A program made the position numbers and the translations under genes. The notes beneath the pieces are model-generated. The model searched no databases. It worked only from the letters and a program-made list of their open reading frames with translations, and was not told where the DNA came from. Shown here one piece after another: positions 4,602 through 63,341 of a DNA stretch of 64,000 nt. Position 1 is the first letter of the stretch. Each line of letters starts with the position of its first letter. Source of the DNA: Cyanobacteriota bacterium erpe_2018_sw_21hr_WHONDRS-SW48-000092_B_bin.40 (GTDB taxonomy: Bacteria; Cyanobacteriota; Vampirovibrionia; Obscuribacterales; Obscuribacteraceae); the NCBI GenBank assembly GCA_030917395.1, contig JAUPUU010000106.1:2806-66805 (forward strand). Direction: 5' to 3'.

Positions 4602-5192
4602 ATGAGTCACACAGGCGGCGGGCATGGCCATGGCGGTCATCACGGGGTTCAAGGCGGGCATCCAGACCAATCAGCTTCATGGAGTAGCGCTCTTCAAGGT
4701 GGAGAGAGGCCTATTACGTCCCTGCCAAATCCTACAATCCTGCCTATCTTTTTCGCCTTAGTGGTTTTTGTCATTATGCTCTTACCCTTCATCATTAACT
4801 GGGGAGAGGGAGGCGTTGAATTGCCTTGGGCGCAGAAGCAAAGCCAGGTAAGCCAGGACCTACAGCAGAGTGGACTGCCCGAACGGGCCAGTGAGCAGCA
4901 ATCACCAGAGATTTATCAGGCAGCAGGTCAAGCCGCAAGTCAGGCTACCAGCTCAGCGGCAGTGCAAGAGCAAGCGACTAGTGCTCCACCAGCAAGCTAC
5001 GAGCAGCAACTCTTGTATGCATCACAACAGAGCTACGGCCAAAATGCTAATCAGCAAACCCAAGCCGTAAACCCTGCCGCACAGCAAACCTATGCGGCCC
5101 AGCCAAACTATTCACCAGCTGGCTCAACCCAAGAAAATTTTGCTCCTTCAGCTCAAGCACAAAGACGACATCGTGTTTGGGTAGAGCGTTAG
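4602..5192 (+). CDS. Hypothetical single-pass membrane protein (His/Gly-rich N-terminus, Q/A/S-rich C-terminus)
   Basis: MSHTGGGHGHGGHHGVQGGH, then one hydrophobic span ILPIFFALVVFVIMLLPFII, then a low-complexity Q-rich tail. No family was recognised. Confidence 0.5.
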   Translation: MSHTGGGHGHGGHHGVQGGHPDQSASWSSALQGGERPITSLPNPTILPIFFALVVFVIMLLPFIINWGEGGVELPWAQKQSQVSQDLQQSGLPERASEQQSPEIYQAAGQAASQATSSAAVQEQATSAPPASYEQQLLYASQQSYGQNANQQTQAVNPAAQQTYAAQPNYSPAGSTQENFAPSAQAQRRHRVWVER

Positions 5193-5201
5193 AAGCGACT
5201 T

Positions 5202-6491
5202 TCATAGACCCAGCACCTCCCTGCCGCCCAAGTATGGCTGCAAAGCTTTGGGCACATTGATAGTGCCGTCTTGATTTTGATGATTTTCCAGAAGGGCAAT
5301 CAAGATACGCGGAGAAGCGATGGCCGTATTGTTCAAGGTATGAACATACTTTTTCTTTCCATCACCATCGATATAGCGTATGCCTAAACGCCGGGCTTGA
5401 AAGTCATGAAAAGTAGAGCAAGAATGTGTCTCACAATAGGCTCCACGGCTCGGCATCCAAGTTTCAATATCATGCTTACGCACCTGGCCAAGGCCCATAT
5501 CACCGGTACAAACTGCCACCACCCGATAGGGCAGCTCTAGCGCTTGCACTATCTCTTCGGAGTTCTTGAGCAAGCGTAGATGCTCTTGTTCAGACACTTC
5601 TGCATCATTGGCACAAAATACAACTTGTTCTACTTTCTGAAATTGATGCACCCGATAAAGGCCTTTGGTATCGCGACCAGCGGCCCCAGCTTCTCGACGA
5701 AAACAAGTAGAGATGCCAGCAAAACGCAGAGCGCTATAGCCTTCTCCGGCCCCAGCGCCAGCTAGACCATCGAAAGTGCGATTGGCTTGCATTGCAACAA
5801 TGCCAACTTCAGAAGTGCCGGTCAAATAGCGCTTGCCGTCTTCTAACTCGTAAGCATTATCTTCGCCCAGAGGGAAATAGCCAGTGCCGAACATGGCCGC
5901 CTCGTTCACCATCAGCGGTGGCAAGACAGCCGTAAAGCCCTTGGCTAAAACATGGTCTAGGGCAAAGCGCAGCACCGCTAGTTCAAGCAATGCCCCGTCG
6001 CCAATCAAACCATAAGCTCTGGAGCCAGCAGCAAAGCGAGCCCCTTCAAAATCGACCATGCGATTAAGCAAAGCCAGTTCAATATGATCTCGTTCTTTGA
6101 ATGGCCTCTTCACCACTTCGCCCAGGCGATAAATTTCAACGTTGCCGCTATCATCAGCGCCCTCAGGCACCCCCTCAGCGGGCAAGCCCGGCACATGGGC
6201 CATTAGCTTATGATATTCAAGCTCTACAGCCTTAAGCTCGCTTTCTTTGATCACCAATGCCGCGCCAATTTCTTTAGAATGGGCAATATGGCTGGCACGA
6301 TTGGGGCCATCGCTAGTGACCAGATCAGAAGTGCGATTGCGCTGTTCACGCAATAGGTTTACTTCCTTACCAAGCAAACGCCTCTCTTCGTCAACAATCA
6401 AAAGACGGTCCAAATCGAGGTTTATGCGCTTGGTCGCAATAGCCTGCTTGAATGCATCCGGGTTATTTCTTATTAGTTCAATGTCTATCAT
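5202..6491 (-). CDS. serS: Seryl-tRNA synthetase
   Basis: The N-terminal coiled-coil arm begins MIDIELIRNNP. Class II motifs include FRREAGAAGRDTKGLYRVHQF and GTSEV. I prefer the ATG at 6491, which follows AAGAGG by 5 nt, over the GTG at 6494. Confidence 0.95.
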   Translation of the reverse strand: MIDIELIRNNPDAFKQAIATKRINLDLDRLLIVDEERRLLGKEVNLLREQRNRTSDLVTSDGPNRASHIAHSKEIGAALVIKESELKAVELEYHKLMAHVPGLPAEGVPEGADDSGNVEIYRLGEVVKRPFKERDHIELALLNRMVDFEGARFAAGSRAYGLIGDGALLELAVLRFALDHVLAKGFTAVLPPLMVNEAAMFGTGYFPLGEDNAYELEDGKRYLTGTSEVGIVAMQANRTFDGLAGAGAGEGYSALRFAGISTCFRREAGAAGRDTKGLYRVHQFQKVEQVVFCANDAEVSEQEHLRLLKNSEEIVQALELPYRVVAVCTGDMGLGQVRKHDIETWMPSRGAYCETHSCSTFHDFQARRLGIRYIDGDGKKKYVHTLNNTAIASPRILIALLENHQNQDGTINVPKALQPYLGGREVLGL

Positions 6492-6684
6492 CACTACCTC
6501 TTATAAAGCTTATGGCTCTGCCTTCTACCGGTAGCGAGGCACAAAAAAGAGGCCTCGCTTGGGCGGGCCTCTAAAGTTCAAATCACTAAATCTATGAATT
6601 GAAAGACAAGCAGCACCCGCATCTCGAATAATTCGATGATGATGATGATGACGATATTCTTGCTGCTCGATTTATGTAACTCAT
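6478..6684 (-). CDS. Putative serS leader ORF with seven consecutive Ser codons
   Basis: Hand-read: ATG at 6684, then MSYINRAARI-SSSSSSS-NYSR... with the run TCG TCA TCA TCA TCA TCA TCG at 6654-6634. The frame stays open across the terminator and stops at 6478, inside serS. It is not present in the supplied ORF track. Confidence 0.45.
6544..6573 (-). terminator. Intrinsic-terminator-like hairpin (candidate attenuator) in the serS leader
   Basis: On the minus strand the RNA reads AGAGGCCCGC-CCAA-GCGAGGCCUCU followed by UUUUUU. It lies about 50 nt upstream of the serS start. Confidence 0.6.
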
Positions 6685-6690
6685 CTTTCC

Positions 6691-6718
6691 ACTATAAGTG
6701 CTAGCCAAACTTTGTCAA
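6691..6718 (-). promoter_or_regulatory. Sigma70-like promoter for the serS leader
   Basis: TTGACA (6718-6713), a 16-nt spacer, then TATAGT (6696-6691). The leader ATG follows 6 nt after the -10 element, which implies a leaderless or near-leaderless transcript. Confidence 0.45.
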
Positions 6719-6831
6719 CGACTGAAAAGCTTCCAAAAAGTTTAGAATTTGCGCCAAGCAGCACAAATGCCAGCTAGACTAACTTTCTTGAACTGTTTGG
6801 AAATGTTGCTAGCGAGACAAATACAGTGACA

Positions 6832-7506
6832 ATGAAACTAGAGATTTATTCAGACATCATTTGCCCATGGTGCTACATCGGCAAAGTTAGGCTAGATAAA
6901 GCGCTGAAGACCCTTGGCGGCAAGGTCAATTTCAAAGTAGTCTGGCGCCCTTTTGAACTCAATCCATCAATGCCAGCAGAAGGAATGGACCGCAAAGAAT
7001 ATCGCACCTGCAAGTTTGGCAGCTGGGAGCGTTCTCTTGAAATGGATAAAGAGATAACCGCCAAAGCAGCTGCGGACGGACTGACCTTCAACCTCGACAA
7101 ACTCACACGCACGCCAAATACTTTCAATGGCCATCGCCTGCTCTGGTTCGCTGAAAAGAGCGCGGACAAAGCCGGTATCCAAGAAGAAGCTGAGAAAGAC
7201 ATTCAGGATACAATCGCAGAACTTCTCTTTCAGCGCTATTTTTGTGAGGCCGCCGATATCGGTGACATCAATATTTTAACGGAAGTCGCAGTCGAAGCTG
7301 GCTTAGACAAAGCAGAAGTACAAGCCTTTTTGCTATCAGACCAAGGTGTGGCCGAAGTAAAAGCAGAAGCGCAAAGAGGCATCCGCCTGGGCATCAGTGG
7401 CGTACCAGCCTTTGTCTTAGAAGGTGATGTCATTGCCTCCGGCGCCCAAACCCCAGAACACTTTATAGAATTGCTCACTCGCGTCTATGCCAATTACTCA
7501 GCTTGA
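6832..7506 (+). CDS. DsbA-family (FrnE-like) thiol oxidoreductase
   Basis: MKLEIYSDIICPWCYIGK carries a CxxC in the DsbA/FrnE context, and GVPAFV lies near the C-terminus. I prefer the ATG at 6832 over the GTG at 6826. Confidence 0.8.
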   Translation: MKLEIYSDIICPWCYIGKVRLDKALKTLGGKVNFKVVWRPFELNPSMPAEGMDRKEYRTCKFGSWERSLEMDKEITAKAAADGLTFNLDKLTRTPNTFNGHRLLWFAEKSADKAGIQEEAEKDIQDTIAELLFQRYFCEAADIGDINILTEVAVEAGLDKAEVQAFLLSDQGVAEVKAEAQRGIRLGISGVPAFVLEGDVIASGAQTPEHFIELLTRVYANYSA

Positions 7507-7626
7507 ATTTAATCGGGAGAGGCAAGAAAGAATTTTCTAGTGCTCCTCTGAAGCAAGAAAAACAATGTGCTAGGGTAAACCGACTAGATCTACTAAACAT
7601 ACGAACAGACATGGAGATAAAAGGCA

Positions 7627-8355
7627 GTGCACACCGAATTACTCGACTACGCCGACGACAAACAGATCTGCGAAGCCTTTGTGGCCTATGACGAAACAAA
7701 GAAAGAAAAACGTCCCGCCGTTTTGATCTGTCATGCCTGGGGCGGCCAGGGTGCTTTCGAACAAGAGAAAGCAAAAAAATTGGCCGAGCTCGGTTATGTT
7801 GGCTTTGCCCTCGACAATTATGGCAAGGGTAAACGCGGCAGCTCAATGGAAGAGAATGGCAAATTGATGCAGCCTTTCATGGATGATCGTGCCATGTTGC
7901 GCCAGAGGCTCCTAGCCGGCCTGGCAGCCGCCAGAAAACACCCCATGGTAGGCGACAACATTGCAGTGATTGGCTTCTGTTTTGGAGGCCTCTGCGCCCT
8001 TGATCTGGCTCGCGTCTCTAGCAAAAATTCTGGTGACAAAGGCGTCAATGGAGCAGTTGCCTTCCACGGCCTCTTCCACCCACCAGCCCTGGGCAAACAA
8101 GAAGAGATCGCCGCCAAAGTCTTGATTTTGCACGGCTATGATGACCCCATGGCCACCCCAACCGATGTTCTTGCCATTGCCAAAGAACTGACCGATGCTA
8201 AAGCTGACTGGCAGCTCCACGCTTACGGCCACACCAGCCATGCCTTTACTAATCCAGAAGTAAACATGCCTGAAAATGGCTTGCAGTACAACGCTACTGC
8301 CGATAAGCGCTCATGGCAATCGATGCAGAACTTCTTGAGCGAAGTGCTGGGTTAA
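7627..8355 (+). CDS. Dienelactone hydrolase family protein
   Basis: PAVLICHAWGG, the nucleophile-elbow-like IGFCFGG, and ILHGYDDP...HAF. The start is GTG. Confidence 0.8.
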   Translation: MHTELLDYADDKQICEAFVAYDETKKEKRPAVLICHAWGGQGAFEQEKAKKLAELGYVGFALDNYGKGKRGSSMEENGKLMQPFMDDRAMLRQRLLAGLAAARKHPMVGDNIAVIGFCFGGLCALDLARVSSKNSGDKGVNGAVAFHGLFHPPALGKQEEIAAKVLILHGYDDPMATPTDVLAIAKELTDAKADWQLHAYGHTSHAFTNPEVNMPENGLQYNATADKRSWQSMQNFLSEVLG

Positions 8356-62746: not shown

Positions 62747-62769
62747 ATTCTCATCCTCAAAAATTGCAT

Positions 62770-62797
62770 AAAAAAAGAGCCCGCAGGGAGCGAGCTC
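62770..62797 (-). terminator. his operon attenuator (intrinsic terminator)
   Basis: On the minus strand the RNA reads GAGCUCGC-UCCCU-GCGGGCUC followed by UUUUUUU. It lies between the leader peptide and hisG. Confidence 0.65.
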
Positions 62798-62830
62798 TAA
62801 ACAGTTTCGTGCGTAAACGCAAGGTGGCTG

Positions 62831-62884
62831 TTAGTCCGCTCCATCGAGAAACATATGATGATGGTGATGGTTGCGGCCAGTCAT
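62831..62884 (-). CDS. hisL: his operon leader peptide (17 aa, five consecutive His codons)
   Basis: Hand-read ATG ACT GGC CGC AAC CAT CAC CAT CAT CAT ATG TTT CTC GAT GGA GCG GAC TAA, giving MTGRNHHHHHMFLDGAD. It lies 85 nt upstream of hisG. Confidence 0.7.
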   Translation of the reverse strand: MTGRNHHHHHMFLDGAD

Positions 62885-62979
62885 TTCTTACAGAAACCTG
62901 CTAAACGATAACTGAGCTGAGGTTAACATCGCACTGGGCCGATGGCAAGTACTTACTACGAATGTTTAAGGCTGGACAG

Positions 62980-63008
62980 TTGACTCTCTCCATCATTTCG
63001 ATTATATT
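62980..63008 (+). promoter_or_regulatory. Sigma70-like promoter for arsR; predicts a leaderless mRNA
   Basis: TTGACT, a 17-nt spacer, then TATATT. The arsR ATG follows 6 nt after the -10 element. Confidence 0.45.
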
Positions 63009-63014
63009 GGAAAT

Positions 63015-63341
63015 ATGAAAACGAATACAGCCGTAAACGCTCTATCTGCCCTGGCCCAAGAAACCAGACTCGAAATCTTCCGACTCTTGGTGCGCAAAGG
63101 TCAACAAGGAATGGCAGCGGGCGAACTAAGCAGTCACTTTGCCATGCCCGCGGCAACTATGTCGTTTCACCTAAAAGAATTGAGCAGTGCCTCTCTAATT
63201 ATGCCAAGGCGCGAGAGTCGCTCAATCATATATTCTGCTAATTACGATCAAATGCAGCAGTTAATGAGCTTCTTGCTCGAAAACTGTTGCGCCGAAGAAA
63301 GAGAAAATAATAACAATAAGGATGGAGGAAAATGCCAATGA
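63015..63341 (+). CDS. arsR: ArsR/SmtB-family metalloregulator
   Basis: LSALAQETRLEIFRLLVRKG...ELSSHFAMPAATMSFHLKELSSASLI is a winged HTH. A Cys pair (ENCC) lies near the C-terminus. Confidence 0.85.
   Translation: MKTNTAVNALSALAQETRLEIFRLLVRKGQQGMAAGELSSHFAMPAATMSFHLKELSSASLIMPRRESRSIIYSANYDQMQQLMSFLLENCCAEERENNNNKDGGKCQ

Follow-up and report, generated by a model that had tools for sequence, protein, structure and literature searches.

What sets the expression of the seryl-tRNA synthetase (SerRS) gene, serS, when a short open reading frame (ORF) with a run of Ser codons and a terminator-like hairpin lie between its promoter and its start codon? The question is raised by a 64,000-nt stretch of contig JAUPUU010000106.1 (assembly GCA_030917395.1, positions 2,806 to 66,805), which comes from a bacterium of the Obscuribacterales (Cyanobacteriota; Vampirovibrionia) and is called here the window. 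An initial annotation of the window had proposed a Ser-codon leader attenuator for serS. Our analysis bears this out: across 43 distinct orthologous leaders, the ATG, the run of Ser codons, the terminator and the competing pairings have all been conserved. We consider it likely, with a probability of roughly 85%, that the element is a ribosome-mediated leader-peptide transcription attenuator, which would set serS expression by the supply of charged tRNA-Ser. This reading is carried by the anatomy of the leader, by its conservation across the order, by compensatory changes in two of its helices (1:2 and 3:4) and by a switch reproduced in silico. The features are collected in Table 1, where the pairing strands of the RNA are numbered as regions 1 to 5.

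Table 1. Features of the serS leader in the window, listed in the direction of transcription.
Feature	Position	Strand	Details and basis
Sigma-70-type promoter	6691..6718	minus	-35 TTGACA 6718-6713, 16-nt spacer, -10 TATAGT 6696-6691
Leader ORF MSYINRAARISSSSSSSNYSRCGCCLSFNS, 30 codons + UAG	6592..6684	minus	ATG 6684, UAG 6594-6592; translation
Region 1, 5' strand of protector hairpin 1:2	6632..6669	minus	CGAGCAGCA (6669-6661) and last Ser codons; minimum-free-energy and centroid folds
Regulatory Ser codons, part of region 1	6634..6654	minus	UCG, five UCA, UCG, codons 11-17; translation
Region 2, 3' strand of 1:2	6607..6628	minus	GCGGGU 6620-6615 complementary to terminator 5' arm; folds, duplex prediction
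Spacer hairpin between regions 2 and 3	6578..6602	minus	Encloses UAG 6594-6592, itself enclosed by 2:3 when antiterminated; folds
Intrinsic terminator	6543..6572	minus	Region 3 AGAGGCCCGC 6572-6563, loop CCAA, region 4 GCGAGGCCUCU 6558-6548 (bulged A6555), U-run 6548-6543; fold
Region 5, UGCCUCGCUACC	6530..6541	minus	Complementary to region 4 and to serS ribosome-binding site
serS ribosome-binding site	6489..6500	minus	Shine-Dalgarno (SD) GAGG 6500-6497, GGUAGUG 6498-6492, ATG 6491-6489
serS, seryl-tRNA synthetase gene, regulated gene	5202..6491	minus	Pfam Seryl_tRNA_N (PF02403) and tRNA-synt_2b (PF00587)

A conserved leader in front of serS

Re-reading of the minus strand placed the promoter (TTGACA, 16-nt spacer, TATAGT) at the coordinates first reported for it; 11 of its 12 bases agree with the consensus, and no promoter-like site within 5000-8000 scores better. 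The ATG at 6684, already noted 6 nt after the -10 element, opens a frame whose re-translation returned the seven Ser codons that had been read at codons 11-17 (6654-6634), and the SD and ATG (6491) that had been assigned to serS stand in the sequence, with Pfam confirming the gene product as a seryl-tRNA synthetase. It had also been observed that only the Ser frame of the repeat is open, and indeed neither the His nor the Ile frame offers a start codon once its last stop before the run has been passed. The initial annotation had followed the Ser frame for 68 codons into serS and found it missing from the ORF list; both statements were in error, as the frame has 30 codons and ends 19 nt upstream of the terminator hairpin, and it is listed as 6592..6708 from an upstream in-frame TTG. 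Ribosome-terminator interference or translational coupling into serS, which had been offered as further mechanisms, were based on the misread frame and are unneeded.

Relatives were collected in two ways. A SerRS protein scan with one genome per species gave 186 relatives, the best 80 of which formed the locus set, divided into 33 loci from metagenome-assembled genomes (MAGs) of Obscuribacterales / Melainabacteria (SerRS identity 53-98%) and 47 comparison serS loci from Oligoflexia, Bacillota, Spirochaetia and others; other Vampirovibrionia orders and photosynthetic cyanobacteria lie outside this tested set. Additionally, metagenomes were scanned with a gene-agnostic DNA pattern, namely the terminator plus its downstream partner. 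Six of the 18 matches were GC-rich chance matches within unrelated coding sequences and the other 12 were genuine leaders; a SerRS start (MIDIE... or a similar sequence) comes next in 11 of these 12. The window, the 33 genome loci and the 12 metagenome contigs together provided the 43 distinct leaders. Four MAGs with an Obscuribacterales-type serS locus and leader (L017, L025, L029 and L003) are titled Oculatellaceae, Bryobacterales, Planktothrix or Flavobacterium psychrophilum, probably owing to bin contamination or mislabelling.

All 43 leaders share one layout, consisting of a TTGACA / TAnAnT promoter, a close ATG, an ORF with a Ser run, a region 2 complementary to both the Ser-codon strand and the terminator 5' arm, and an intrinsic terminator. 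By the same criteria, an ATG-started Ser-run ORF with a terminator before serS was found in 33/33 Obscuribacterales loci and in 0/47 loci of other phyla (Fisher p = 3e-23), and the element is linked to serS in 45 of its 46 occurrences. In the window, the gene upstream of the leader promoter is divergent (DsbA-like, plus strand from 6826) and, besides the leader promoter, no promoter-like site was found in the 50 nt between the terminator U-run and serS; the terminator therefore lies inside the serS leader. SerRS of the window is 96-98% identical to SerRS of Obscuribacterales MAGs.

One metagenome contig (Ga0206986_1001; L096:1-520, minus) carries a genuine Ser leader with terminator and region 5, and serS is not next to it. 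Downstream of the SD there is a 6-codon ORF (MSDISW*), followed by an ORF starting MTMTESQNENTIDYLLPENHDLL..., of which 250 nt are covered and for which Pfam gave no match. A displacement of serS, or capture of the attenuator by another gene, may account for this.

Concerning the leader ORF, an ATG start is present in 43/43 leaders and the predicted peptides have 14-30 aa. The run holds 3-7 Ser codons in every leader (SSASS in L018), the first at codon 9-13, and the reading frame is always closed by a stop ahead of the terminator. UCN codons make up 203 of the 205 run codons; AGY accounts for 43% of the Ser codons in the long ORFs of the window. Codons within the run vary among UCA, UCG, UCU and UCC yet remain Ser, and the peptide outside the run diverges freely from leader to leader (e.g., MNKAAHRNSSSSSP, MHKWQYTFSSSSSSQSVEAGRGYAIL, MNQFIEELIASSSSASNQRCGCIIA). 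These patterns point to a translated ORF with the Ser run as its sole conserved coding feature, which in annotation would belong under "leader peptide" and not under hypothetical protein. Run length differs by whole codons between near-identical genomes.

Specifically, among genomes at 96-98% SerRS identity the (UCA)n tract varies in length in the manner of a microsatellite, with 7 Ser codons in the window, 6 in L001, L003, L004 and L095, and 3 in L002; in L005 the run is interrupted by a change of UCA to CCA (Pro). The sensitivity of the attenuator may thus differ between near-identical strains.

The geometry of the promoter bears on how this ORF would be translated. A TTGAC(A) / TAnAnT pair lies 6-7 nt ahead of the leader ATG in 32/33 genome loci, with a weaker version in L013, and the -10 element ends 6-7 nt ahead of the ATG in 33/33 genome loci, a distance that widens to 6-8 nt among the metagenome leaders. 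From this we infer a transcription start at or beside A6684. A spacing of 6-8 nt leaves no space for an SD on a transcript from the leader promoter, and the leader ORF is probably translated from a leaderless 5'-terminal AUG, a consequence of the promoter geometry that is absent from the initial annotation. Elsewhere in the window, an ArsR-family helix-turn-helix gene (108 aa; 62978-63341, plus strand, ATG 63015) starts 6 nt after a TTGACT-17-TATATT promoter, in the same geometry as the serS leader ORF, which hints at a wider use of leaderless mRNAs in this genome.

Predicted alternative helices of the leader RNA

A GC-rich hairpin followed by six U residues had been described before serS with its start at 6573. 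The hairpin is real, with its first base at 6572: folded alone (6572-6548), it has a dG of -17.3 kcal/mol (z = -4.4), and 0/200 shuffles fold as well. A simple terminator scan passed over it, probably due to the bulged A, and it was found by folding of the strand. In every leader a GC-rich stem runs directly into a U-run.

Alignment of these leaders called for some care. The full-length MAFFT alignment (A1) misplaced region 5 and the L016 and L024 clades, and sub-region alignments (A2, A3) and a covariance-model alignment (A4) were used in its place; the covariance model of serS leaders (R1) did not recover the divergent L024-L030 clade, which was treated by hand and with RNAduplex. Two controls were applied, the first being the percentage of pairing after the partner strands had been shifted ("slid"), and the second an alignment-free swap test, in which native helix partners were compared with partners from dissimilar leaders. 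In the swap test native partners pair better in all 5 helices.

The protector hairpin 1:2 was the first alternative pairing proposed for this leader, and the pairing of CGAGCAGCA (6669-6661) with UGCUGCUUG (6615-6607) is present in the minimum-free-energy fold of the window. RNAalifold, run unguided on 20 main-clade leaders, predicted both this hairpin and the terminator. Covariation, named in the initial annotation as a check on its proposal, was found in the hairpin of the Ser-codon strand with region 2 and in the terminator. For 1:2, 89.9% of the alignment cells are paired, versus 28-58% when slid, and the covariation score was reached by 0/500 shuffles. For 3:4, 91.7% of the cells are paired and 4 pairs show compensatory changes, with 0/500 shuffles reaching the observed value. 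In the covariance-model alignment, which comprises 36 distinct leaders, the two helices are jointly 93.6% paired, with 7 compensatory pairs. Other sequences make up 1:2 in the L016 and L024-L030 clades (CGUCC / GGACG and GUCUUCG / CGAAGNC, respectively). In the same 36 leaders, the core of the putative antiterminator 2:3 (GCGGGU / GCCCGC) is 93.5% paired, versus 26-43% when slid. Hairpins analogous to the spacer hairpin occur in the folds of L011, L015, L016, L024 and L025.

The proposed course of events follows the classical four-region logic. RNA synthesis would begin at or beside the AUG of the 30-codon leader ORF, yielding a leaderless transcript. With ample Ser-tRNA(Ser), the ribosome would pass the seven UCN codons and reach the UAG, and region 2 would pair with the strand that bears the Ser codons (1:2); where the ORF of a relative ends just past the Ser run, the terminating ribosome itself would cover region 2. 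In both cases region 3 would remain free to form the 3:4 terminator, and RNA polymerase would halt at the U-run, short of serS. Under a shortage of charged tRNA-Ser, the ribosome would stall on the Ser codons and mask region 1; GCGGGU of region 2 would then pair with the newly made GCCCGC of region 3, this 2:3 antiterminator would preclude the terminator, and serS would be transcribed. Both geometries of the ORF stop are compatible with the classical attenuator model: ORFs of 14-18 aa stop directly past the Ser run, where a terminating ribosome would sit on region 2, and the ORF of the window clade crosses region 2, with its stop 19 nt ahead of region 3.

Folding with a masked ribosome footprint, which the initial annotation had put forward as a further check, gave a divided answer. 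Masking the Ser codons in the whole leader was uninformative at equilibrium, and a co-transcriptional truncation model, with the RNA cut at the terminator loop, was used instead; in this model the footprint does free region 2 for the terminator 5' arm. For the window, this arm has a mean pairing probability of 0.37 in the free RNA, region 2 then being taken up by region 1; the value rises to 0.76-0.80, with region 2 as the partner, when a footprint lies on the first or middle Ser codons. A ribosome placed at the stop codon gives 0.37 again. Under a footprint on the middle Ser codons, the 5' arm is more paired in 31/34 leaders. Read from its sequence, the leader has the testable defining features of a leader-peptide attenuator, namely a short separate leader ORF, tandem cognate codons, an intrinsic terminator and a protector pairing over the regulatory codons, with the exception of covariation proof of the antiterminator.

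Several points weigh against this reading. The full leader at equilibrium is dominated by the terminator, with the Ser codons either masked or exposed (P of about 0.98 in the window, and likewise in most relatives); since the terminator wins at equilibrium, control between 2:3 and 3:4 must be kinetic, and a co-transcriptional choice of this kind goes beyond the in-silico demonstration. In the trp attenuator, likewise, the terminator is favoured thermodynamically and the choice is kinetic. No covariation was found in the 6-bp core of 2:3, because region 3 is invariant, and this helix is supported by conserved complementarity and the swap test. Additionally, the bias to UCN codons could reflect a constraint of RNA pairing and not a choice among tRNA isoacceptors, the leaderless start is deduced from promoter geometry, and the response to serine is likewise a deduction, drawn for an uncultured organism.

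Region 5 and the serS ribosome-binding site

A second partner of the terminator 3' arm had been reported downstream of it as a perfect 9-bp match. The partner exists, with 8 bp (AGCGAGGC / GCCUCGCU, 6559-6552 with 6540-6533), and it is also complementary to the serS ribosome-binding site, which had not been noticed. Directly after the U-run, GCCUCGC (6540-6534) is conserved and pairs perfectly with the terminator 3' arm, including the bulged A, which has no other explanation. Pairing in the 4:5 helix stands at 93.2%, versus 31-47% when slid, and double changes are seen in 4 pairs. Using overlapping bases, region 5 of the window also matches the ribosome-binding site (UGCCUC / GAGGUA and CGCUACC / GGUAGUG), and over the leaders this 5:SD helix is 80% paired, versus 40-55% when slid. 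The L024-L030 clade retains both complementarities in other letters (GGCUCGC / GCGGGCC and CCUUGC / GCAAGG). Region 4 of the main clade (GCGAGGC, with the conserved bulged A) contains GAGG and hence resembles an SD. Two loci (L008:2920-3003 and L052:2920-3003) bear an insertion of ~55 nt with a direct repeat (AUGCUUCAAGCAA, twice) between region 5 and the serS SD, and both CGCUACC and GGUAGU are kept.

These complementarities could extend the attenuator by a translational lock, in which region 5 would act as an anti-SD. Where the terminator has formed and is nevertheless read through, region 5 would close the serS ribosome-binding site. Antitermination would leave region 4 free, and since the polymerase reaches region 5 ahead of the SD, the unpaired region 4 (anti-anti-SD) would capture the emerging GCCUCGC first and the ribosome-binding site would stay open. 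Some of the evidence speaks against such a relay: no covariation was found in 5:SD, because the SD is invariant; the modelled gain in accessibility of the ribosome-binding site, scored over a wider segment than the SD core, is modest (mean from 0.40 to 0.49, up in 33/43 leaders and down in 5); and accessibility of the SD core in the window clade is unchanged (0.50 versus 0.51). We therefore hold the added lock, suggested by conserved pairing and folding models, at somewhat less than an even chance. The full five-strand version, launched from a leaderless leader ORF and with the terminator 3' arm doubling as anti-anti-SD, is put forward tentatively, at the lower end of that estimate. If true, a single stalling event would control an aminoacyl-tRNA synthetase at the levels of transcription and translation alike, and the link between terminator arm, anti-SD and ribosome-binding site would provide a directly testable design for coupled transcriptional and translational control.

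The same observations raise the alternative that control is purely translational, with a stalled ribosome exposing the serS SD, as in mycobacterial leaderless ORFs with poly-Cys tracts or in ermC, and the hairpin and U-run being mainly structural. Complementarity of region 5 to the ribosome-binding site in most leaders, the separate solution of the L024-L030 clade (CCUUGC / GCAAGG) and the greater modelled accessibility with region 4 free would all fit it. Nevertheless, a canonical GC-rich stem with an immediate U-run in every leader, and with compensatory changes in the stem, is the signature of an intrinsic terminator, and the modelled effect is small and vanishes at the SD core of the window clade; we regard this alternative as improbable, if the likeliest of the rivals considered.

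Probable translation of the leader ORF

The transcription attenuator presupposes that the ORF is translated. As an alternative, the leader could be an untranslated riboregulator that binds tRNA-Ser (T-box-like), SerRS itself (autoregulation, as for E. coli thrS) or a small ligand, with the UCN repeat serving as no more than the pyrimidine side of a helix. In the free RNA, region 2 always pairs with the UCN strand, so that structure alone could account for part of the conservation, and the near-absence of AGY codons is compatible with a pairing constraint. However, the ATG lies 6-8 nt past the -10 element and in frame with the Ser run in 43/43 leaders, and whole-codon changes of length, synonymous Ser codons and a stop that always precedes the terminator are needless for an untranslated element. 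Family searches speak against it as well. Neither the window nor the 20 loci searched contained a match to any Rfam family at its gathering threshold. A T-box riboswitch was rejected on this result and on the lack of any T-box match at E <= 10 in 6400-6850, and, save for a sub-threshold match to His_leader, no other Rfam family appeared even at E <= 10. The His_leader match (RF00514; 6543-6651) was itself discarded, with 26.1 bits against a gathering threshold of 49 (E = 0.032) and a His frame that has no start codon; it arises because the UCA repeat reads CAU in another frame. On balance, an untranslated riboregulator appears very unlikely, a shade more so than purely translational control.

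Weakest of all is the view that the short ORF encodes an independent small protein and carries a terminator of its own, serS being expressed from a separate promoter in a non-regulatory arrangement, which we find hardly credible: the terminator is strong and the window clade does keep the Cys-rich tail RCGCCLSFNS over ~15% SerRS divergence, but beyond this clade the peptide is conserved only in the Ser run (compare MNKAAHRNSSSSSP and MHKWQYTFSSSSSSQSVEAGRGYAIL), the codons of "RCG" overlap the GCGGG of the antiterminator, so that their conservation lies at the RNA level, the 50 nt from the U-run to serS hold no promoter-like site, and the near-constant link of the element to serS would be unaccounted for.

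Comparison with known systems

In E. coli, pheST, with its leader peptide pheM, is a synthetase operon controlled by a leader-peptide attenuator. Such attenuators are known for few synthetase genes, the others being candidates, namely trpS and leuS of Streptomyces (PMC1262725) and hisS paralogues of Bacillus (PMC2965389). The serS leader resembles them in having an ORF rich in cognate codons before a synthetase gene, with predicted alternative antiterminator and terminator hairpins; a switch of this type senses charging through the speed of the ribosome. It differs from them in the amino acid and the gene (Ser and serS), in the lineage (Obscuribacterales / Melainabacteria), in an apparently leaderless ORF and in the extra region 5. 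A full-text literature search found no Ser-codon leader and no serS attenuator.

With the trp and his operon attenuators of Proteobacteria, the leader shares the tandem regulatory codons in region 1 and, as proposed here, the four-region logic (1:2, 2:3, 3:4) and the kinetic choice; unlike them, it precedes a synthetase gene and not a biosynthetic operon, and it belongs to no sequence family. In Firmicutes, serS is a textbook T-box-regulated gene. There, the gene, the signal (uncharged versus charged tRNA-Ser) and the terminator/antiterminator output would be the same, whereas the T-box binds the tRNA directly and the sensor here would be the translating ribosome. If true, an uncultured, non-photosynthetic sister lineage of cyanobacteria attains a goal of the T-box type with a ribosome-based sensor.

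Regarding the leaderless start, the closest parallel is found in the mycobacterial polycysteine leaderless short ORFs ("Cys ribulon"), which gate translation (bioRxiv 10.1101/834739). In both systems a leaderless homopolymeric tract would stall the ribosome and so alter pairing downstream, and the ribosome-binding site released in mycobacteria resembles the proposed lock of region 5 on the SD. The mycobacterial elements, however, act on translation without a canonical intrinsic terminator, whereas any translational effect in the serS leader would be relayed via the terminator 3' arm. The class of mechanism is classical; the amino acid, the gene and the lineage are new, and the traits that set this element apart are the apparently leaderless start and a possible relay to translation. 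The 43 natural sequence variants constitute a ready comparative dataset.

A second candidate leader before hisG

A scan of the whole window for terminators in 5' leaders with short ORFs bearing codon runs returned serS and hisG only. The second leader-peptide attenuator candidate is located at 62768-62884 (minus), upstream of hisG (62746-61760). Its ORF MTGRNHHHHHMFLDGAD (62884-62831) contains five consecutive His codons and is followed by the hairpin AGAGCUCGCUCCCUGCGGGCUCU with U7 (62798-62776, the U-run extending to about 62769). Downstream lie HisG (Pfam PF01634), a HAD-like ORF and IGPD/hisB. The 5' arm of this terminator has a complement, GGAGCG, in the tail of the His leader ORF. On the hisG leader, Rfam His_leader scored below threshold. 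Together, the serS and hisG leaders suggest attenuation as a general regulatory style in these genomes.

The two leaders also resemble each other. The covariance model of the serS leader gave a weak match to the His leader (26.8 bits, E = 0.036; 62769-62870 minus versus 6542-6651 minus), and (UCA)n of the Ser run and (CAU)n of the His run amount to one nucleotide repeat read in different frames, both pairing with a downstream GAUG. This resemblance could reflect shared ancestry by a shift of frame, or convergence.

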